Below are positions 56 through 5,937 of a stretch of 5,937 nucleotides of DNA, piece by piece (within the stretch, counting starts at the first letter, position 1; every line of letters starts with the position of its first letter). The position numbers were made by a program, and so were the translations under genes. Source of the stretch: a virus; IMG/VR virus record IMGVR_UViG_3300045988_003949; one strand, given 5' to 3'. Under the pieces are notes generated by a model that saw only the letters and a list, made by a program, of their open reading frames with translations, was not told where the DNA came from and did not search any database.

Positions 56-143
56 AGAAAACTGCTGGATAAACAGAACGTGCGAGCTGTCCCGGCAGAG
101 AATCAACCAATTGGAAAACGAAAACAAAATAATGTGGATGTAA
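1..143 (+). CDS. 3' part (frame 3, codons start at base 3) of the wrapped 61-aa ORF (...ENCWINRTCELSRQRINQLENENKIMWM*). It duplicates 5883-5937 and extends to the stop at 141-143.
   Basis: Open frame continuous with 5840-5937 through the 55-nt terminal repeat, with stop TAA at 141-143. The ORF track does not list it because its start codon lies at the other end of the window. Confidence 0.5.
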   Translation, partial: YRSSIDGQIRFPYTFSKKENCWINRTCELSRQRINQLENENKIMWM

Positions 144-156
144 GGAGTTGACGAAG

Positions 157-549
157 ATGATTAAAAGCTATATACTGGACACAGACGGAAACATAAAGCT
201 GGCAAGACACTTCAAAGTAAAAGAATTTGCTTGCAAAGACGGCAGTCAAGTAGTATTCATAGACGACTATCTATACACCATTCTGGATATCTTACGGGAT
301 AAGCTGGGAAAACCGGTCATTATCACCAGCGGATACAGAACACCAGGGTGGAACGCAAAATGCGGCGGAGCAAAATACAGCTATCACATGCGCGGTATGG
401 CAGCAGATATCCGGGTAAATGGAATAAGCGCAAAAGAACTTGCCAACAAGCTGGATGAAATCGTCCCGGATGGATGCGGCATTATCGTATACAAAAGTTG
501 GGTGCACTTTGATGTGCGAACTGGGAAAAAATACAGAAAGGGGGTGTAA
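157..549 (+). CDS. Zinc metallopeptidase of the M15 family (Peptidase_M15_3 / D-Ala-D-Ala carboxypeptidase-like, a phage muralytic endopeptidase), the probable lysis enzyme.
   Basis: The translation carries the family signature: SGYRTPGWNAKCGG, then SYHMRGMAADI (the H-x6-D zinc ligands), then a C-terminal WVHFDVR (third His). The ORF track starts it at TTG 148, but ATG 157 lies 9 nt after AAGGAG (142-147) and is the better start. There is no signal peptide or TM segment. Confidence 0.88.
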   Translation: MIKSYILDTDGNIKLARHFKVKEFACKDGSQVVFIDDYLYTILDILRDKLGKPVIITSGYRTPGWNAKCGGAKYSYHMRGMAADIRVNGISAKELANKLDEIVPDGCGIIVYKSWVHFDVRTGKKYRKGV

Positions 550-552
550 CAA

Positions 553-657
553 ATGGCACTTATCAGCATTAAGGACCTGAAAGCTGCAATCGCAGTTATG
601 CGACAGATCTTGGAAAAGCTAGACGAGATCTATCATGTACTGCATGACAAGCAGTGA
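553..657 (+). CDS. Possible 34-aa micro-ORF (MALISIKDLKAAIAVMRQILEKLDEIYHVLHDKQ), predicted to be an amphipathic helix.
   Basis: ATG at 553 lies 10 nt after AAGGGGG (536-542) and 3 nt after the peptidase stop. It is too short for the ORF track, and coding potential cannot be assessed by eye. Confidence 0.3.
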   Translation: MALISIKDLKAAIAVMRQILEKLDEIYHVLHDKQ

Positions 658-692
658 ATGAATGACGAATGACCTGGAAGGGAGAACTAGCA

Positions 693-914
693 ATGAAATC
701 GTGGAACATAAGAGACCAGCCCAAAGAATCATTGGAAAGACAACTCGTAAAAAAATACAAAGAAATTGATGGCAATTTTAGAATGCTTAGAAAAGTGTCA
801 AACATCGAAGACGCTAAAAAGCTGATAGATGAAATCTGGCAAATGAAAAGCTTTGCAAACAGCATTGAAATGGAACTAATGCGAAGGGAGTATAACAGTG
901 GCACGGCATCGTAA
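693..914 (+). CDS. Hypothetical 73-aa protein (MKSWNIRDQPKESLERQLVKKYKEIDGNFRMLRK...). The start could instead be ATG 669.
   Basis: GGAAGGGAG (677-685) sits 7-8 nt before ATG 693. The frame is open to TAA 912-914 and is co-oriented with the neighbouring genes. Confidence 0.55.
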   Translation: MKSWNIRDQPKESLERQLVKKYKEIDGNFRMLRKVSNIEDAKKLIDEIWQMKSFANSIEMELMRREYNSGTAS

Positions 915-1020
915 AGTAATGAGCGGCGCAAAAGACCGCCGCATTTTCAACGCAACTGCACGAAAAACCAAAAGTATCAACCTCAGCCAAAAGCCTATGC
1001 GTGGCGGGATCCGGCTGTAA
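898..1020 (+). CDS. Small, highly basic 40-aa protein (V/M-ARHRKVMSGAKDRRIFNATARKTKSINLSQKPMRGGIRL). It resembles the DNA-binding and packaging protein of Microviridae (phiX174 J, gokushovirus ORF8).
   Basis: GTG start at 898 lies 7 nt after AAGGGAG (884-890). The protein has about 13 Arg/Lys/His in 40 residues and no acidic block. The gene overlaps the end of the upstream ORF by 17 nt and stops at TAA 1018-1020. It is absent from the ORF track, probably because it is short and starts with GTG. Confidence 0.55.
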   Translation: MARHRKVMSGAKDRRIFNATARKTKSINLSQKPMRGGIRL

Positions 1021-1040: not shown

Positions 1041-1280
1041 ATGAAGCATGAATATTATGGTCTCTGGGACAGTGTGGCGAAGTGCTACGCATGGGTAGGC
1101 GAGAGCAAGAACAGTGCAACCTTTGCACGTATGTGCAACGTAATGGCGAAAGATGAAAAGACGTTTGTCGGACAGGCACCGGGCGACTATACCGGCGTCA
1201 AACTGGCAGAGTTTGACGATGAAACCGGCGAGTTTACCAACGACAAGGAAAAGGTATGGGAGGGCAAGCCGCATGAATAA
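1041..1280 (+). CDS. Hypothetical 79-aa acidic protein (MKHEYYGLWDSVAKCYAWVGESKNS...EFDDETGEFTNDKEKVWEGKPHE).
   Basis: ATG 1041 follows the GGAAAGGAAAGTGG RBS (the ORF track's 1032 GTG start is less likely). Its stop TAA 1278-1280 overlaps the next gene's start as ATGAATAA. Confidence 0.6.
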   Translation: MKHEYYGLWDSVAKCYAWVGESKNSATFARMCNVMAKDEKTFVGQAPGDYTGVKLAEFDDETGEFTNDKEKVWEGKPHE

Positions 1281-1671
1281 ACGATACGAAGAAGGGCGAG
1301 AGCCCTTCTTTTCCAATCCTGGAGAAAAAATCTTAAAGCAATACGTTTGGACGAAGGACGAAAAAGGGGAAGAAGTGCTGCAAGAAACTGCACCAATCGA
1401 TATCCAGCAGGAAATTGAAAGCTATGCGGATGAATGTGATATCAAAAACATTGTCCGAAAAGCGAGTTTTGACCCGCAGTTCCTAAAAAGCCTGTCAGAG
1501 GGAGCACTAAACGGAACGGAAGTAGATATCACCGAGTTTCCGCAGAACATTCACGAGTATCATCGCATGATCGCAACAGCACAGGCAAACGCCATGAAAC
1601 TAAAAGAGCTGCAGGAAGCAGCAAAAGAAGAGCCTAAAACAGAGCCTAAAACAAAGGAGGAAGAAAAGTGA
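1273..1671 (+). CDS. Hypothetical 132-aa acidic, helical protein with a Lys/Glu-rich tail (KEEPKTEPKTKEEEK). From its position and composition it is a candidate internal scaffolding (VP3-like) protein.
   Basis: ATG 1273 lies 8 nt after GGGAGGG (1258-1264). The 1153 start in the ORF track would add a basic N-terminal extension in another gene's frame. The stop TGA 1669-1671 overlaps the VP1 start as GTGA. The function is inferred only from synteny (immediately upstream of the capsid gene) and composition. Confidence 0.6.
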   Translation: MNKRYEEGREPFFSNPGEKILKQYVWTKDEKGEEVLQETAPIDIQQEIESYADECDIKNIVRKASFDPQFLKSLSEGALNGTEVDITEFPQNIHEYHRMIATAQANAMKLKELQEAAKEEPKTEPKTKEEEK

Positions 1672-3341
1672 ATCGAAACAATGAACGGCACTTTAACCAG
1701 ATTCCAGAAGTGAAAGCGAGCCGAACAAGTTTTAACCGCGACCAAACGGTTTTAACAACGTTCGACTCCGGCAAGCTGATCCCATTCTATGTTGACGAAG
1801 TATTACCGGGTGATACATTCAGAGTAGACACGTCAGCAATCATCCGGATGACAACGCCAAAATATCCGGTAATGGACGATGCATTTATCGACTTCTACTA
1901 CTTCTATTGTCCTAACAGAATTCTGTGGGACAACTTCAAGTACTTTATGGGAGAAGTAGAAGCAACACCATGGATGCCAGCAAAAGAATACGCAGTACCA
2001 CAAATCGTAATCAAAGGAACGGAGGCAAAACCAGCACCAGATGAAAAATCCATTCTAGACTATATGGGAGTGCCGACTAAAATCAAAAAAGAATTTAGAA
2101 TTAACGCACTACCCGTAAGAGCGTACGTAAAAATTTGGAATGAATTTTTCAGGGATGAAAACGTAGATAACAAAGCAACACTAAGAACGGACGATGCAAA
2201 CGTAGCCTACGAATTCGGAAATGAAACTTGGGTACAGCAAGCAGAAGACGACGCCTACACCGGCGGAAACTTGTTACCTGTAAACAAATTCCACGACTAC
2301 TTCACCAGCTGTCTGCCTTATCCTCAGCGCGGGCCAGCGGTAACACTGCCGATGGAGGGAAACGCAATGATAAAAGGATTCAACGACCAAAAACTTAAAG
2401 ACCAAACAACTCTATATGCAAACAGCTTTTTTGACGGAAAAACAACACCAGCCAACATAAAAGACAAACTGTATGCAATCTCAACATACGGAGGTGAAGA
2501 ACAAGCATATGTAAACGTCGGAACAGGAGAAGGGGACGTCCATAAAGTAGTGTACCTGGGCGCAGACCTCGGGTCAGCCACAGCAACAACCATCAACGAC
2601 CTGAGAAAAGCCGTAGCAGTACAACAGTACTATGAAGCGCTGGCACGAGGTGGCAGCAGATACCGCGAACAGGTACAAGCACTGTGGGACGTGGTTATCA
2701 GTGATAAAACCGTACAAGTGCCGGAATACCTGGGCGGCGGCAGATATCATGTCAATATCAACCAAATCGTGCAGACCAGCGGACAGCAGACAAACAACGA
2801 CACGCCAATTGGCGAAACTGGTGCAATGTCAGTAACGCCAATCAACGAAAGTAGCTTTACCAAATCGTTTGAAGAGCATGGTTTTGTAATCGGTGTATGT
2901 TGTGTGCGGCACAATCGCAGTTACCAGCAGGGACTTGAACGTTTCTGGAGCAGAAAAGACAGGCTGGACTACTACGTGCCACAGTTCGCAAACTTAGGTG
3001 AACAGCCTGTAAAAAAGAAAGAAATCATGCTCACCGGCGATGCAAAGGACGAAGAAACGTTCGGGTACCAGGAAGCATGGGCAGACTATCGCATGAAACC
3101 TAACCGGGTATCTGGCAAAATGAGAAGTAATGCGGTAGGAACACTGGACTTCTGGCATTATGCAGACTACTATACCCAAGAACCAACACTGTCGCAAGAC
3201 TGGATGGAAGAAGGCAAAATCGAGATTGCACGCACGCTCATCGTGCAAGATGAGCCTCAGTTCTTCGGAGCTATCCGCATAGCAAACAAAACCACAAGAC
3301 GGATGCCATTGTACAGTGTACCGGGCTTGTACAAACTGTAA
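1668..3341 (+). CDS. VP1: Major capsid protein VP1 (Microviridae F-protein family), 557 aa.
   Basis: The N-terminus HFNQIPEVKASRTSFNRDQTVLTTFDSGKLIPFYVDEVLPGDTF is the hallmark Phage_F capsid signature. Its size is typical of gokushovirus VP1. The GTG start lies 7 nt after AAGGAGG (1654-1660). Confidence 0.93.
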   Translation: MNRNNERHFNQIPEVKASRTSFNRDQTVLTTFDSGKLIPFYVDEVLPGDTFRVDTSAIIRMTTPKYPVMDDAFIDFYYFYCPNRILWDNFKYFMGEVEATPWMPAKEYAVPQIVIKGTEAKPAPDEKSILDYMGVPTKIKKEFRINALPVRAYVKIWNEFFRDENVDNKATLRTDDANVAYEFGNETWVQQAEDDAYTGGNLLPVNKFHDYFTSCLPYPQRGPAVTLPMEGNAMIKGFNDQKLKDQTTLYANSFFDGKTTPANIKDKLYAISTYGGEEQAYVNVGTGEGDVHKVVYLGADLGSATATTINDLRKAVAVQQYYEALARGGSRYREQVQALWDVVISDKTVQVPEYLGGGRYHVNINQIVQTSGQQTNNDTPIGETGAMSVTPINESSFTKSFEEHGFVIGVCCVRHNRSYQQGLERFWSRKDRLDYYVPQFANLGEQPVKKKEIMLTGDAKDEETFGYQEAWADYRMKPNRVSGKMRSNAVGTLDFWHYADYYTQEPTLSQDWMEEGKIEIARTLIVQDEPQFFGAIRIANKTTRRMPLYSVPGLYKL

Positions 3342-3352
3342 GAAAGGAGGAA

Positions 3353-3377
3353 GCCCGGAGAAATCCGGGCTATTTTT
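3353..3377 (+). terminator. Intrinsic terminator or attenuator hairpin: GCCCGGA-GAAA-TCCGGGC (7-bp stem, GNRA tetraloop) followed by TATTTTT.
   Basis: A perfect inverted repeat at 3353-3359/3364-3370 with a GAAA loop and a T-run at 3371-3377. It lies between the VP1 stop (3341) and the VP2 start (3380). Confidence 0.6.
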
Positions 3378-3379
3378 AA

Positions 3380-4243
3380 ATGGGGGCATTATCAGGATTC
3401 TTAACAGCGCTAAACGTAGCAGGAAACGTAGCAAATACGGTCGGAACAATCGCCGGAGCAGCAAAAAACGTTGCTGGAGCTTTTGGCGGATGGGGTCAGA
3501 CAGGCAACAGCCAAAGCCAGGGCGGAAGCACAAGCCAAGGTGGTGGACACTCAGAGAGCGGAAGCCAAGCAGGCACAAACATTCAGCAAGTAAACGACTG
3601 GCTAAAACAAGCATACGCATACCAAGGGCAAGAAGCAGCCATGCAAGGTAAATACAACAGTCAAAGCATGTTAAAACAGATGGGTTACAACACCTTACAA
3701 GCAATCATGCAGGGCGTATATAACCACATTGAAAACAGCGTAGCGATGAACTACAACAGTGCAGAGGCACTAGCAAACCGTGAATGGCAAGAGCACATGT
3801 CAAGCACAGCATACCAGCGTGCAGTTGAAGATATGAAGAAAGCCGGCTTAAATCCGATTTTGGCATTTTCTAACGGAGGTGCAAGCACACCAGGCGGATC
3901 TGCAGGAACAATTAGTGGGGCAAGTATGGGACTTGCAAGCAGTAGCGCACTAGGAGTAAGCAGAAGCGGTGGATTTGTACCGAATGCATACTCAAGTTCA
4001 AGCTGGAGTAAAAGTGACTGGTACAACGCCGCAGAAAGCTGGCAGCAGATGCTCAGTTCAACACACATGACGCCATACGGACTGCAAAAGGCGCTTACAG
4101 AAGTAGGAAGCAACACAAGCAAAGCCATTACGGATGCAACAGCAAAGGCAGAAAAGGGCGCAAGACAGAGCAGAAGCATGAAACCGCAAGATAAAACGGG
4201 AAGCTACGGAGAAAAACGAAAGCCGGGTGATTATTTAAAATGA
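3380..4243 (+). CDS. VP2: Minor capsid / DNA pilot protein (VP2, phiX H-like), 287 aa.
   Basis: A Gly/Ala-rich, low-complexity N-terminal half (MGALSGFLTALNVAGNVANTVGTIAGAAKNVAGAFGGWGQTGNSQSQGG...). It sits immediately downstream of VP1, as in gokushoviruses. Its stop overlaps the VP4 start as ATGA. Confidence 0.75.
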   Translation: MGALSGFLTALNVAGNVANTVGTIAGAAKNVAGAFGGWGQTGNSQSQGGSTSQGGGHSESGSQAGTNIQQVNDWLKQAYAYQGQEAAMQGKYNSQSMLKQMGYNTLQAIMQGVYNHIENSVAMNYNSAEALANREWQEHMSSTAYQRAVEDMKKAGLNPILAFSNGGASTPGGSAGTISGASMGLASSSALGVSRSGGFVPNAYSSSSWSKSDWYNAAESWQQMLSSTHMTPYGLQKALTEVGSNTSKAITDATAKAEKGARQSRSMKPQDKTGSYGEKRKPGDYLK

Positions 4244-5259
4244 GTTGTTACAAGCCATTAATAAGGCTGTACAACCCGGAAAACAAAGATATAAGCGGGC
4301 GGGTGTATTCACTTGCCCGCTTTTCTGAAATATCGGGAAAACAGCTCAAATATGAAGATTTGATGTACAGAAAAAACATCATGTTGATACCATGCGGGCA
4401 GTGCATCGGATGCAGAATCAGACAAAGAGAGGACTGGACAACACGAATAGAATTAGAAGCACGAGACTATCCAAGAGAAGAAGTATGGTTTATAACATTA
4501 ACCTATGACGATGATCATGTACCAGGCATGATAGTAAACACAGGCGAAATCATGCGAAAAGTGCAATACGTCTGGAAACCGGGAGAGAAGCGTCCTGAAA
4601 GCGTCCAAACTTTGCTATATCCTGACATTCAAAAGTTCTTAAAACGCCTCAGAAAGGCTTACAGGGGCAAATTACGCTATTTTGTGGCAGGAGAGTACGG
4701 AGAACAGACAGCAAGGCCACATTATCATATGATACTGTATGGATGGGAACCAACAGATCTAGAACACTTGTACAAGATACAGCACAACGGATATTTTACA
4801 AGTAAATGGCTAGGAAACCTATGGGGAATGGGTCAAATACAGATAGCACAAGCAGTACCGGAAACATATAGATATGTTGCAGGGTACGTGACGAAAAAAA
4901 TGTACGAAATTGACGGTCAAAAGGCAAACGCGTACTATGAACTAGGGCAACAAAAGCCTTTTGCATGTATGAGTCTTAAACCAGGCTTAGGAGATCACTA
5001 TTACCAAGAGCACAAAGAAGAGATCTGGAGACAAGGCTACATCCAATGCACAAACGGCAAGCGCGCACAAATTCCACGCTATTATGAAAAAATGATGGAA
5101 GCTGAAAACCCACAAAGATTGTGGAGAATTAAACAGAACAGACAGGCGGCGGTAATCGCGGAAAACCGGCTAAAATACGAAAACGCAGACTTTGAAGAGC
5201 AGTGTAAAACGAAAGAGAGAGTGACAAGGAAGCAAATGAAGAAGAGAGGGACACTTTAA
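4240..5259 (+). CDS. VP4: Rolling-circle replication initiator VP4 (phiX A-like HUH endonuclease), 339 aa.
   Basis: Cys cluster PCGQCIGC (nt 4393-4413). RCR motif 1 WFITLTYDD (about 4486-4512). Motif 2 RPHYHMILYG, with the HUH histidines at about 4720-4728. Motif 3 YRYVAGYVTKK, with the Y-x3-Y-x2-K catalytic tyrosines at about 4867-4899. Confidence 0.93.
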   Translation: MSCYKPLIRLYNPENKDISGRVYSLARFSEISGKQLKYEDLMYRKNIMLIPCGQCIGCRIRQREDWTTRIELEARDYPREEVWFITLTYDDDHVPGMIVNTGEIMRKVQYVWKPGEKRPESVQTLLYPDIQKFLKRLRKAYRGKLRYFVAGEYGEQTARPHYHMILYGWEPTDLEHLYKIQHNGYFTSKWLGNLWGMGQIQIAQAVPETYRYVAGYVTKKMYEIDGQKANAYYELGQQKPFACMSLKPGLGDHYYQEHKEEIWRQGYIQCTNGKRAQIPRYYEKMMEAENPQRLWRIKQNRQAAVIAENRLKYENADFEEQCKTKERVTRKQMKKRGTL

Positions 5260-5278
5260 CAGTGTCATGGTGTCACCT

Positions 5279-5310
5279 AGCCCAGTACCTATCAAGTAAG
5301 GTACTGGGCT
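5279..5310 (+). other. Perfect 11-bp stem-loop: AGCCCAGTACC, loop TATCAAGTAA, GGTACTGGGCT.
   Basis: Exact inverted repeat at 5279-5289/5300-5310 with a 10-nt loop, 20 nt after the VP4 stop. The loop motif TATCAAGTA recurs at 5350-5358. Confidence 0.6.
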
Positions 5311-5370
5311 ATTGCCATTTAAAGGCTCCATGTATCGGACCATTCAGTTTATCAAGTAGATATACTTTAT

Positions 5371-5413
5371 CGCGCGTGCGCACGCGCGCGAAGCGCGCAC
5401 GCGCGCACGCGCG
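5371..5413 (+). other. GC-only imperfect palindrome and hairpin: CGCGCGTGCGCACGCGCGCG, AAG, CGCGCACGCGCGCACGCGCG. The stem has 18 of 20 positions paired and is built from alternating purine/pyrimidine.
   Basis: Read directly. The two 20-nt arms are nearly reverse-complementary with a 3-nt loop, and each arm is a strictly alternating Pu/Py tract that could form Z-DNA. Confidence 0.6.
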
Positions 5414-5563
5414 GCTCTTGGGCGCTATTGTTCGCAAGCTCACAAGCGCCGTATAATATATAACTTGTTGTAGGAGTAGTAGTAGAGATAGTGGAAAAGT
5501 TGAAAAGTACTAAAATTTAACGTTAAAGCGTAAATAAAAAGCAAAAAACAATGTTAAAAGTTT

Positions 5564-5592
5564 TGTTGAAAACTTGTTGAAATGTTGAAAGT
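5564..5592 (+). repeat. Iteron cluster A: three copies of TGTTGAAA(A/T/G) at 5565, 5576 and 5584. Related copies lie at 5499-5507 and 5553-5560.
   Basis: Direct repeats of the GTTGAAA core spaced 8-11 nt apart. Confidence 0.6.
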
Positions 5593-5625
5593 CCGTCAAA
5601 ATGACGAAAATCATTGTGCAACTTT

Positions 5626-5665
5626 TTGTTGAAAACCTGTTGAAAGTGTTGAAAGTGTTGAAAAC
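5626..5665 (+). repeat. Iteron cluster B: four tandem copies of TGTTGAAA(A/G)(C/T), with GTTGAAA cores at 5628, 5639, 5648 and 5657.
   Basis: TTGTTGAAAACC TGTTGAAAG TGTTGAAAG TGTTGAAAAC. The last three copies repeat every 9 nt exactly. Confidence 0.65.
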
Positions 5666-5785
5666 GCGCACAGCGCTAAAAAGGAATGGACCAGCCGAGC
5701 TCCGCATGCGCTACGCACGGCAGGGCGCTAAAGCGCCATCAAAACAAAGGGACAAAACCGGCTACTGATATATCAATTAAAATAC

Positions 5786-5814
5786 TTGACAATTGTAAAG
5801 AAATATGCTATAAT
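5786..5814 (+). promoter_or_regulatory. Consensus sigma70-type promoter: TTGACA at 5786-5791, exact 17-nt spacer, TATAAT at 5809-5814.
   Basis: Both hexamers match the consensus 6/6 with 17-bp spacing. An SD-like AGAGAGGTAAGG and an ATG at 5840 follow downstream. An AT-rich, UP-like tract and the palindrome TGATATATCA (5766-5775) lie just upstream. Confidence 0.7.
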
Positions 5815-5839: not shown

Positions 5840-5937
5840 ATGAAAAACTGTTACGAATACACAGAAAACAAAAAAGTAAAGTTCTACCGTTCAAGCATTG
5901 ATGGGCAAATCCGTTTCCCTTACACTTTCAGCAAAAA
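5840..5937 (+). CDS. 5' part of a 61-aa hypothetical protein that wraps the contig junction (MKNCYEYTENKKVKFYRSSIDGQIRFPYTFSKK...). It continues at window bases 56-143.
   Basis: ATG at 5840 lies 7-9 nt after the GAGAGGTAAGG SD and directly downstream of the consensus promoter. The frame stays open across the terminal repeat and ends at TAA 141-143, immediately before the peptidase RBS. Confidence 0.55.
   Translation, partial: MKNCYEYTENKKVKFYRSSIDGQIRFPYTFSK
5883..5937. repeat. Second copy of the 55-nt terminal redundancy, the overlap left by assembling a circular contig.
   Basis: Identical to bases 1-55. Confidence 0.9.

Follow-up and report, generated by a model that had tools for sequence, protein, structure and literature searches.

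One gene of the 5,937-nt stretch of viral DNA analysed here (the window) encodes an intact zinc peptidase of the M15 family, carried by a gokushovirus. The product is, from its sequence, a predicted soluble, cytoplasmic, single-domain enzyme of MEROPS family M15 (clan MD) and Pfam family Peptidase_M15_3, and it is probably an endolysin-type enzyme from a dsDNA-phage lysis cassette, used without a holin for host lysis. We infer the lysis role from homology with annotated endolysins located in lysis cassettes. The peptidase is a confirmed feature; such phages have been known since 2012 to carry the gene, and the window contributes a further example. Few ssDNA phages of the mammalian gut are as abundant as gokushoviruses, whose only recognisable lysis-type gene is the M15 peptidase. 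The mechanistic question is how a cytoplasmic wall hydrolase works in a 5.9-kb virus without an encoded holin.

The peptidase and its conservation

The peptidase reading frame starts with the ATG at position 157 and ends with the TAA at 547–549, and a longer N-terminus is ruled out by an in-frame stop codon at 130–132. Profile searches identified PF08291 (Peptidase_M15_3) with E = 3.9e-23 and 82.1 bits against a cut-off of 23.2, spanning profile positions 2–108 of 108, as well as PF05951 (4.4e-08) and PHROG 894, annotated ‘endolysin’ (6.5e-43). The NCBIfam equivalog model for the peptidoglycan L,D-endopeptidase MepK (NF053624) was also matched, with 47 bits against a cut-off of 185, and the protein is classed as a putative MepK relative that falls below this equivalog cut-off.

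An earlier note, made from the DNA letters alone, had proposed a microvirus carrying the full Peptidase_M15_3 signature, and all of its elements are present: SGYR at residues 58–61, the H77-x6-D84 pair inside the S-x-H-x-x-G-x-A-x-D motif, and the C-terminal H117-F-D119. By prediction, H77, D84 and H117 are the zinc ligands and D119 is the catalytic residue. Among 84 copies of the peptidase, SG[YF]R and SxHxxGxAxD are kept in every one and VHxD in 83; H77, D84 and D119 are invariant, and H117 occurs in 83. All four residues are invariant in a 64-sequence alignment that includes dsDNA-phage homologues, and the ligands named in the note thus survive alignment.

The assignment was further borne out by structure prediction. 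The final AlphaFold2 model, built on the 64-sequence alignment including the Faecalibacterium-phage group, reached a pLDDT of 92.1 and a pTM of 0.86; it replaced a model from 28 sequences (81–100% identity) that had a pLDDT of 70.6 and near-random fold matches. Comparison with the PDB by Foldseek revealed a Hedgehog/DD-peptidase (LAS) fold, the best match being 1LBU (probability 1.00, TM-score 0.64), followed by Hedgehog N-domains, VanY/VanXY, Ply500, ChiX, LysB4, LysECD7 and the T5/RB49 endolysins.

The gene is intact in 83 of 83 relatives and is under purifying selection (median dN/dS 0.17, pooled pN/pS 0.22). It was present in all 73 near-complete relatives sampled by VP1 capsid similarity, and is fixed in the clade. 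A sister clade, with VP1 45–51% identical, carries the same small-gene module and has neither a peptidase nor a transmembrane (TM) ORF, and gokushoviruses are therefore able to complete their cycle without the peptidase. For the same reason, the peptidase may be an addition to another lysis function rather than a substitute for it.

M15_3 peptidases were found in human-gut Gokushovirinae and Alpavirinae by Roux et al. (2012; PLoS One 7:e40418, PMC3394797), those of the gut Gokushovirinae being regarded as likely endolysins gained by gene transfer. M15 peptidases of gut Microviridae were reported repeatedly thereafter (Kirchberger, 2020; 2022), with the same functional reading in 2022, and M15 metallopeptidases read as a lysis gene were described in cultured marine Occultatumvirinae infecting Roseobacter (Commun Biol, 2024; PMC11499846). 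These papers verify what the earlier note had stated about M15 peptidases in gut Microviridae. Since GenBank already has close relatives with the annotation ‘peptidase M15’ (Human gut gokushovirus KX513868/KX513877 and the MG945xxx Microviridae from pig faeces), the peptidase is not novel, and sequences 100% identical to it are already held in JGI, ENA, Logan and IMG/VR. In the literature searched, we found no microvirus M15 peptidase that had been tested biochemically or genetically.

Genome context and origin of the gene

The window holds a complete circular gokushovirus genome of 5,882 nt, which lies within the 4.5–6 kb or so expected of the subfamily; the excess is due to a 55-nt terminal direct repeat. 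Profile searches identified the complete gene set of the Gokushovirinae (Microviridae), VP1 to VP5, all on one strand (Table 1). The nearest genome record is Gokushovirus WZ-2015a (KT264791), with 83.7% nucleotide identity. The VP5 call matches the gene calls on public contigs of the same virus (L001/L002), whose peptidase is 100% identical.

Table 1. Coordinates of genes and other features in the window.
Feature	Position	Strand	Remarks
Shine-Dalgarno-like AAGGAG	142..147	+	9-nt spacer to peptidase ATG; read from the sequence
M15_3 zinc peptidoglycan peptidase gene, 130 aa (predicted activity)	157..549	+	PF08291
Conserved small gene, 34 aa (34–40 in relatives), amphipathic helix	553..657	+	81/83 relatives
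Small hydrophilic gene, 81 aa	669..914	+	kept in 65/83 relatives, pN/pS 0.36
Basic 40-aa protein, resembles gokushovirus ORF8-type DNA-binding protein	898..1020	+	phrog_10695 2.7e-10
VP5, non-structural protein	1041..1280	+	PF20577 Phage_ORF5 2.5e-10
VP3 internal scaffolding protein	1273..1671	+	PF09675 Chlamy_scaf 5.4e-10; phrog_24309 6.7e-72
VP1 major capsid protein	1668..3341	+	PF02305 Phage_F 2.7e-140
Terminator-like hairpin directly 3' of VP1	3352..3371	+	consensus match only
VP2 DNA pilot protein	3380..4243	+	phrog_8742 2.5e-126
VP4 replication initiator	4240..5259	+	PF23343 8.4e-18; phrog_942 1.5e-107
Sigma-70-type promoter-like site	5786..5814	+	12/12 consensus match only
Assembly overlap	5883..5937		exact duplicate of bases 1–55

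The promoter-like site comprises TTGACA, a 17-nt spacer and TATAAT with an extended TG, and is placed approximately 225 nt upstream of the peptidase on the circle; the putative terminator consists of an 8-bp stem with six G-C pairs followed by a T-rich tail. Two ORFs of the long non-coding region (5262–5456 and 5601–5768) were rejected as genes, as their pN/pS of 0.74–0.93 indicates that they are not protein-coding, and an Rfam search gave no match above noise. The 81-aa gene belongs to a small-gene module shuffled between lineages, and its product matched nothing in Pfam, PHROG or NCBIfam; the gene for the basic 40-aa protein is present in all 83 relatives, and a homologue is labelled ‘DNA binding protein’ in Dulem virus records.

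A scan for VP1 in 185,579 species-representative genomes revealed no prophage or close relative that could point to the host. Host clues for gokushoviruses are few, and one of them is the affinity of the M15 peptidase to Faecalibacterium enzymes and those of other Clostridia; most of its nearest cellular relatives (40–51% identity) belong to Faecalibacterium, further Oscillospirales or Lachnospiraceae. Faecalibacterium phage FP_oengus encodes a 138-aa M15 ‘endolysin’, after which come a 79-aa TM protein and then a holin, and the order endolysin, small ORF, Holin_SPP1 recurs on two more phage fragments; a small TM ORF was located within 1 kb of the peptidase in 41 of 59 Clostridia genome loci. 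The peptidase was thus probably captured long ago by a gokushovirus lineage of the mammalian gut, the likely donor being a lysis cassette in a dsDNA phage that infects Clostridia (Oscillospirales or Lachnospiraceae), and the holin would have been left behind. At third codon positions, the gene has the same composition as the viral backbone, in contrast to the Faecalibacterium-phage gene; this marks the peptidase gene as an old resident. The divergent M15 alleles were also considered as recent imports, and this was rejected because no viral M15 allele was more than 59% identical to any non-microvirus M15 sampled.

Three contigs of 5.1–5.5 kb with FP_oengus-like endolysins (80–85% identical to the enzyme of that phage) were likewise rejected as microviruses with a recent transfer. 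An integrase and Holin_SPP1 genes are present on two of them and large tail-type ORFs on the third, and the capsid F gene is absent from all three; they are fragments of dsDNA temperate phages, and MT838592 is likewise a dsDNA-phage fragment. Among 80 Clostridia genome loci, no VP1 or VP4 homologue was detected on the short contigs and none of these is therefore a mis-binned microvirus.

Access of the enzyme to the cell wall

Membrane segments were sought by Kyte-Doolittle hydropathy over 19 residues (KD19) in all + strand ORFs of at least 20 aa, in all three frames and including overlapping ones, a crude hydropathy scan rather than a dedicated predictor. As controls, phiX174 E scored 2.79, the FP_oengus TM protein 2.57 and the FP_oengus holin 1.43; since the latter is a genuine Holin_SPP1-type holin, a cut-off of 1.6 was too strict and the scan was redone at 1.4. 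The statement of the earlier note that the peptidase has no signal peptide or TM segment was upheld, as its best KD19 is 0.85, and a SAR domain was likewise not found; the N-terminus, MIKSYILDTDGNIKLARHF, is charged, and its residues 2–6 form a beta-strand of the fold in the model (pLDDT 96). Equally, none of the small ORFs between 553 and 1280 has a TM helix (maximum KD19 1.19), as the note had observed. The maximum on the + strand of the window is 1.30, so that no ORF reaches 1.4, and on the coding strand of 45 proven-circular relatives no ORF reaches 1.6. At 1.4, the sole recurrent match among the circular relatives is the N-terminus of VP2. No holin family was found among the Pfam and PHROG matches of the genome. 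Thus, of the canonical holin-endolysin system, the virus has the muralytic enzyme by family match, with no holin and no signal or SAR sequence, and the puzzle raised in the note, how the enzyme gains access to the wall, is real.

The note had further placed the peptidase ‘instead of’ a phiX-type lysis gene. No small TM ORF overprinted in the manner of phiX174 E occurs in the three + strand frames of the window; the same scan finds E itself, and this part of the claim stands. Replacement is the imprecise part, because gokushoviruses as a group are without E: according to Kirchberger (2020, citing Roux et al., 2012), all metagenome-assembled gokushovirus genomes lack a phiX-type inhibitor of peptidoglycan synthesis.

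At the end of infection, the peptidase would cleave stem peptides or cross-links in the host wall, leading to cell burst and release of virions. A muralytic enzyme with no way out of the cytoplasm cannot lyse the cell alone, and in the absence of a virus-encoded holin, signal peptide or SAR domain the peptidase would have to wait until the membrane is breached or depolarised by a separate event.

One candidate for such an event lies next to the peptidase, in a conserved small gene which is a new detail of this analysis. It starts 3 nt past the peptidase stop codon, an SD-like GGGGG being located ahead of it within the 3' end of the M15 gene, and the gap is 1–3 nt in 46 of 69 relatives. Its 34-aa product (consensus MALISIKDxKQAIxxMxQILEKLDEIYHALHD) would form a strongly amphipathic helix (hydrophobic moment 0.60–0.72) with a net charge of 0 and an acidic tail (KD19 1.19), and the gene is under purifying selection (pN/pS 0.23, pS 0.67). 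It occurs in 33 GenBank gokushovirus records, nearly always unannotated, and lies at most 30 nt downstream of the M15 gene in 73 of 78 genomes selected by VP1, keeping this place across two M15 allele groups that are 46–52% identical; in KX513864 and KT264784 a homologue is located directly upstream of a third M15 allele.

This arrangement would suit a two-gene, holin-free module in which the helix protein is the lysis trigger of the lineage, either a peptide active on membranes or a protein antibiotic that targets an enzyme of wall synthesis, and the M15 peptidase is the wall-degrading partner; such peptidases would have been captured repeatedly next to the helix gene. The tight spacing across divergent alleles, the purifying selection and the amphipathicity are consistent with such a module. 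However, six gokushoviruses carry the helix gene without a peptidase, which led us to reject a strictly peptidase-specific partner; their existence would fit an ancestral lysis factor, but adjacency may as well reflect a permissive insertion site at a non-coding edge. Moreover, the lack of net charge, the acidic tail and the low hydropathy are atypical for a membrane-disrupting peptide, and the protein has no homology to any family described in Pfam, PHROG or NCBIfam and could equally serve in assembly or regulation. We consider the two-gene reading rather unlikely, and its more specific form, a holin-free module peculiar to gut gokushoviruses with the lesion made by the helix protein or else by the VP2 N-terminus, similarly doubtful. 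If true, it would constitute a third phage lysis route besides holin-endolysin systems and single-gene protein antibiotics.

Alternatively, though this appears quite improbable, the virus would need no dedicated partner for the peptidase, which would reach the wall by a host pathway or where the infection itself damages the membrane. Some phages of Gram-positive bacteria and mycobacteria have endolysins that work independently of a holin, and the Clostridia are a group with described holin-independent endolysin release. In line with this, no viral export function was found in the window or in the circular relatives, and the nearest relatives of the peptidase come from monoderm Clostridia. Host genes or unidentified lysis genes have likewise been suggested for microvirus subgroups without M15 (Commun Biol, 2024; PMC11499846). 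Against such export, the homologous endolysins of Clostridia dsDNA phages keep an adjacent holin, indicating that this enzyme family normally needs one.

It is more improbable still that surplus VP2 pilot protein would insert its N-terminus late in infection and pass the peptidase in the manner of a holin. No other hydrophobic segment recurs on the coding strand; this N-terminus scores 1.42–1.55 in 20 of the 45 circular relatives and 1.36–1.53 in the peptidase-less sister clade, a range that matches the genuine holin. In phiX174, pilot protein H carries a TM helix at its N-terminus and builds a tube that spans the membrane. The VP2 N-terminus of the window itself, however, is Gly/Ala-rich and scores only 1.12, and as part of the virion VP2 is expected to act on the membrane during entry rather than at exit.

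A virion-associated enzyme that digests the wall locally during DNA delivery, as the note had also suggested, has a general precedent in the virion-associated peptidoglycan hydrolases of tailed phages and would make the missing export route irrelevant, but it is hardly credible here, as the homologues are annotated endolysins beside holins in lysis cassettes, the gene neighbours small non-structural genes rather than VP1 or VP2, the sister clade infects its hosts without any peptidase, little room is left in the T=1 capsid of gokushoviruses, and we know of no solved gokushovirus structure with a reported peptidase component.

Comparison with known systems

The preferred reading, an endolysin-type enzyme serving host lysis, can be set against several described systems. 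The gut M15_3 peptidases of Roux et al. (2012) share with the window the Pfam family, the subfamily, the gut habitat, the Faecalibacterium/Clostridiales affinity and the proposed endolysin role. Nothing essential differs in KX513868/KX513877 and the MG945xxx genomes, where the peptidase is 64–85% and the genome 77–84% identical (nucleotides) to the window; in the nearest record, KT264791, the peptidase is 90.8% identical and its gene was left unannotated. Compared by description, the marine Occultatumvirinae likewise carry an accessory M15 gene read as a lysis gene, yet they belong to another subfamily, infect another host phylum and, unlike the window, have the gene order VP1-peptidase-VP4.

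By both sequence and fold, the best solved-structure match is 1LBU, the zinc D-Ala-D-Ala carboxypeptidase (M15A) of Streptomyces albus G, with a profile-based E of 2.1e-06 and approximately 20–26% identity; H77 and D84 of the viral enzyme align with its His154 and Asp161. Unlike the viral peptidase, the bacterial enzyme 1LBU is secreted and has an additional N-terminal peptidoglycan-binding domain, and its substrate specificity is not transferable to the viral enzyme.

The endolysins of the Faecalibacterium dsDNA phages FP_oengus (AUV56575), FP_Toutatis and Lelie are single-domain M15 enzymes of the same family that share the catalytic motifs, are 46–50% identical to the viral peptidase and have 138 instead of 130 aa. 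These phages pair the endolysin with a downstream TM protein and a Holin_SPP1-type holin, whereas the microvirus is without both, and the codon composition of their endolysin gene is quite unlike that of the microvirus gene. Finally, phiX174 E and the gokushovirus peptidase both come from Microviridae and are both presumed to serve host lysis, but E, encoded within gene D by overprinting, is a membrane protein of 91 aa and a non-enzymatic inhibitor of MraY, whereas the window has a free-standing soluble enzyme in place of an E-like ORF.

The peptidase gene and its genomic setting

The peptidase matched the Pfam profile PF08291 (Peptidase_M15_3) over its entire length with an E-value of 3.9e-23 and 82.1 bits (gathering score 23.2), followed by a second, weaker Pfam match to Peptidase_M15_2, and matched PHROG 894, 'endolysin', at 6.5e-43. 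An in-frame stop codon at 130-132 excludes a longer N-terminus. Every motif that the earlier note had named as the full signature of the family was present, namely SGYR at residues 58-61, H77-x6-D84 within S-x-H-x-x-G-x-A-x-D, and the C-terminal H117-F-D119. The only solved structure matching the peptidase by sequence was 1LBU, the zinc D-Ala-D-Ala carboxypeptidase of Streptomyces albus, in whose alignment H77 and D84 lie opposite His154 and Asp161, which we take to be zinc ligands of that enzyme. From a shallow alignment, AlphaFold2 first gave a poor model (pLDDT 70.6). A model from 64 sequences including the Faecalibacterium-phage group reached a pLDDT of 92.1 and a pTM of 0.86, and in Foldseek matched 1LBU with a probability of 1.00 and a TM-score of 0.64, further matches being Hedgehog N-terminal domains, VanY/VanXY and the phage endolysins Ply500, LysB4, LysECD7, T5 and RB49. 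The fold, as modelled, is of the LAS or 'Hedgehog/DD-peptidase' type. The profile search and structure prediction proposed as checks in the earlier note thus yielded an M15 match, intact H/D/H ligands and a modelled LAS fold, and the enzyme assignment is secure.

In all of the 83 relatives retrieved through the similarity of their peptidase, the gene was intact; SG[YF]R and SxHxxGxAxD were kept in 84/84 copies and VHxD in 83/84, the sole exception being L060, a partial contig (4.4 kb) that has a frame fusion. The median dN/dS against the window was 0.17 and the pooled pN/pS 0.22. When the lineage was sampled independently via VP1, an M15 gene was found in 73 of 73 near-complete genomes (VP1 73-97% identical). 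Third codon positions of the peptidase gene (A 35%, C 30%, G 18%, T 17%) have the composition of those of VP1 and differ from those of the Faecalibacterium-phage endolysin gene (A 9%, G 39%). Given the intact copies, low dN/dS, universal presence in the VP1 sample and VP1-like composition, the peptidase is a long-resident, selected gene of this clade.

All genes of the window lie on the + strand. An exact 55-nt terminal direct repeat (1-55 = 5883-5937, an assembly overlap) shows that the assembly is circular and 5,882 nt long, and junction-crossing ORFs appear split in the linear form of the window. The closest GenBank record was Gokushovirus WZ-2015a (KT264791; 93% of the window aligned at 83.7% nucleotide identity), and an identical peptidase is already present in JGI, ENA, Logan and IMG/VR. 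A 61-aa ORF across the junction was found in only six close relatives, with a pN/pS of 0.14 on very low divergence, and is called as a gene on one public contig (L003). The repeats between 5371 and 5663 are iteron-like and could be candidate origin or Rep-binding elements; ORFs overlapping them showed no coding selection (pN/pS 0.74-0.93).

Features of the window and of two Dulem virus genomes
Feature	Position	Strand	Remarks
Shine-Dalgarno-like AAGGAG	142-147	+	nine bases 5' of peptidase ATG
M15 peptidase	157-549	+	ATG 157, TAA 547-549, 130 aa
34-aa ORF	553-657	+	
81-aa ORF	669-914	+	
Basic 40-aa ORF8-like protein	898-1020	+	
VP5	1041-1280	+	
VP3 scaffold	1273-1671	+	
VP1 capsid	1668-3341	+	
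Strong terminator-like hairpin	3352-3371	+	immediately 3' of VP1 stop codon; consensus match only
VP2 pilot	3380-4243	+	
VP4 Rep	4240-5259	+	
Non-coding stretch	5260 across junction to 147		about 780 nt
Repeat	5371-5413		alternating CG / GCGCACGC tract, about 4 copies
Repeat	5490-5508		AGTGGAAA x2.4
Repeat	5575-5590		TGTTGAAA x2
Repeat	5638-5663		TGTTGAAAG x2.9
Sigma-70-type promoter-like site	5786-5814	+	12/12 match: TTGACA, 17-nt spacer, TATAAT, extended TG; consensus match only; about 225 nt 5' of peptidase on circle
61-aa junction ORF	5840-5937 and 56-143	+	ends 13 nt 5' of peptidase ATG; without TM segment
Single-TM hypothetical ORF directly after VP2	L174 (Dulem virus 195) 2593-2700; L175 (Dulem virus 189) 2607-2783		e.g. 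MSSDSLLLFFMVLIVLSCVPGLILLKAIVDWLKRH

Export of the peptidase and the lysis context

A hydrophobic segment is lacking in the peptidase: the highest Kyte-Doolittle 19-residue hydropathy (KD19, which is not a dedicated membrane predictor) along the protein is 0.85, and the model confidently places the N-terminus in a strand of the fold. The scan was applied to every + strand ORF of at least 20 aa in three frames, overprinted genes included. As controls, the phiX174 lysis protein E was easily detected (2.79), as was a 79-aa protein adjoining the endolysin of the Faecalibacterium phage FP_oengus (2.57). In the window the + strand maximum was 1.30, from an ORF of the non-coding region without coding selection (pN/pS 0.93). 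A KD19 of at least 1.6 was reached in none of 45 relatives with proven circular assemblies, and among 71 near-complete genomes only in two sporadic TTG-started ORFs inside VP1. As the annotated holin of FP_oengus, whose 83-aa counterpart on a closely related phage fragment has a Holin_SPP1 Pfam match, scores only 1.43, the threshold was lowered to 1.4, upon which 24 of the 45 circular genomes gave no match and 21 exactly one, in 20 of these 21 the N-terminus of the VP2 pilot. The absence of an export route, remarked upon in the earlier note, is hence borne out for the window, and its clade shares it.

Near homologous peptidases in Clostridia, a small TM-grade ORF was found within 1 kb in 41 of the 59 loci with sufficient flank, and two further phage fragments showed the gene order endolysin-small ORF-Holin_SPP1. 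It follows that the virus acquired, or retained, the enzyme without the holin.

In base composition the coding strand of the window is strongly biased, being rich in A (36%) and poor in T (19%, against about 31-33% in phiX174 and the Dulem viruses); hydrophobic ORFs are rare on such a strand and frequent on its complement, where 18 of 66 ORFs of the window had a KD19 of at least 1.6. The Dulem viruses, whose peptidase is about 50% identical, differ in this composition, having a T-rich coding strand. Two of their three genomes have a small annotated single-TM ORF after VP2, with no clear counterpart in Dulem virus 203. Its product might serve lysis as a holin or in the manner of E; T-rich strands yield many chance hydrophobic ORFs (17 with a KD19 of at least 1.4 in phiX174), and the case is therefore anecdotal.

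The earlier note had the peptidase stand 'instead of' a phiX-type lysis gene, a wording that finds no support, as gokushoviruses generally lack that inhibitor and sister genomes lack both. A phiX-type inhibitor of peptidoglycan synthesis is absent from all metagenome-assembled gokushovirus genomes, some of which have acquired bacterial peptidases (Kirchberger 2020, citing Roux 2012). Six GenBank gokushoviruses (MG945157, KT264799, MG945391, MG945135, KT264798 and MG945423; VP1 45-51% identical to that of the window), which share the 34-aa gene, a basic 39-40-aa gene and VP5, gave no M15 peptidase by tblastn at E ≤10 and no TM ORF except the VP2 N-terminus. Exit without a peptidase is thus possible for gokushoviruses, and the enzyme may be an addition to another lysis function, not necessarily a replacement.

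A conserved small gene beside the peptidase

The 34-aa ORF is a real gene, 34-40 aa long across relatives and found in 81 of 83 of them with a pN/pS of 0.23 at high synonymous divergence, and starts in most of them 1-3 nt 3' of the peptidase stop codon. Its product is a single amphipathic helix (consensus MALISIKDxKQAIxxMxQILEKLDEIYHALHD, hydrophobic moment 0.60-0.72). The gene is present in 33 GenBank records of gokushoviruses and is almost never annotated in them. In 73 of 78 genomes, covering both M15 allele groups, it lies within 30 nt of the peptidase end, and in KX513864 and KT264784 a homologue (MDIKETMNILLKILAMVDKIYHAVV...) directly precedes a third peptidase allele. The adjacency could reflect functional coupling of the two genes, a reading to which we give a low probability, or a spot bordering the non-coding region that tolerates insertions. 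The small gene is found in the peptidase-less clade as well.

In that clade a 68-75-aa ORF precedes the 34-aa gene, whereas the 81-aa ORF of the window follows it, so that the small-gene module has been rearranged between clades. The two ORFs have the motif E[ED]AKx[IL][VI][ED]EI[YW] in common, a likeness judged by eye (L085 1617-1844 and L089 4350-4556, in genomes of the peptidase-less clade) and without a tblastn match at E <1.

Origin of the peptidase and comparison with known systems

The nearest dsDNA-phage homologues were annotated endolysins of the Faecalibacterium phages FP_oengus, FP_Toutatis and Lelie (about 46% identity). When species-representative genomes were scanned with a profile, 80 loci of 40-51% identity emerged. 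Most belong to Faecalibacterium, other Oscillospirales or Lachnospiraceae, and a few are probably outliers of binning; no VP1 relatives were found in the genomes scanned. Viral M15 alleles were at most 59% identical to the non-microvirus sequences sampled. The affinity reproduces the result of Roux et al. 2012 (PMC3394797), in which the peptidases of gokushoviruses were linked to Faecalibacterium and a host among the Firmicutes was suggested; a host of this kind may be inferred here too.

Within the VP1 clade of the window, at least two peptidase allele groups (59 and 16 genomes) with a mutual identity of 46-52% occupy the same locus, which implies allele replacement or a very old divergence of the peptidase. 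The contigs L196, L197, L200 and L202, among others, have a VP1 75-77% identical to that of the window and M15 alleles of just 46-52%.

M15 peptidases in gut Microviridae, mentioned in the earlier note, were indeed reported by Roux et al. 2012, who described M15_3 peptidases in five Gokushovirinae and six Alpavirinae from human samples, inferred horizontal acquisition and proposed an endolysin role. Kirchberger et al. 2022 listed peptidases among the lysis-associated accessory genes found in several microvirus families, and documented recombination of a peptidase region; M15 metallopeptidases are also known from cultured marine microviruses (Commun Biol 2024, PMC11499846), and GenBank relatives are already labelled 'peptidase M15'. 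Among these three papers a holin is mentioned by Roux et al. alone, and solely for the bacterial homologues and their cassettes; the word does not occur in the two later ones, and none of the three raises the question of how the enzyme leaves the cytoplasm. A peptidase in such viruses is therefore an already known feature, with a role in lysis likely from homology and context, and the genuine, testable gap is that of a cytoplasmic wall hydrolase in a virus without a recognisable holin, accompanied by a conserved, unannotated small gene.
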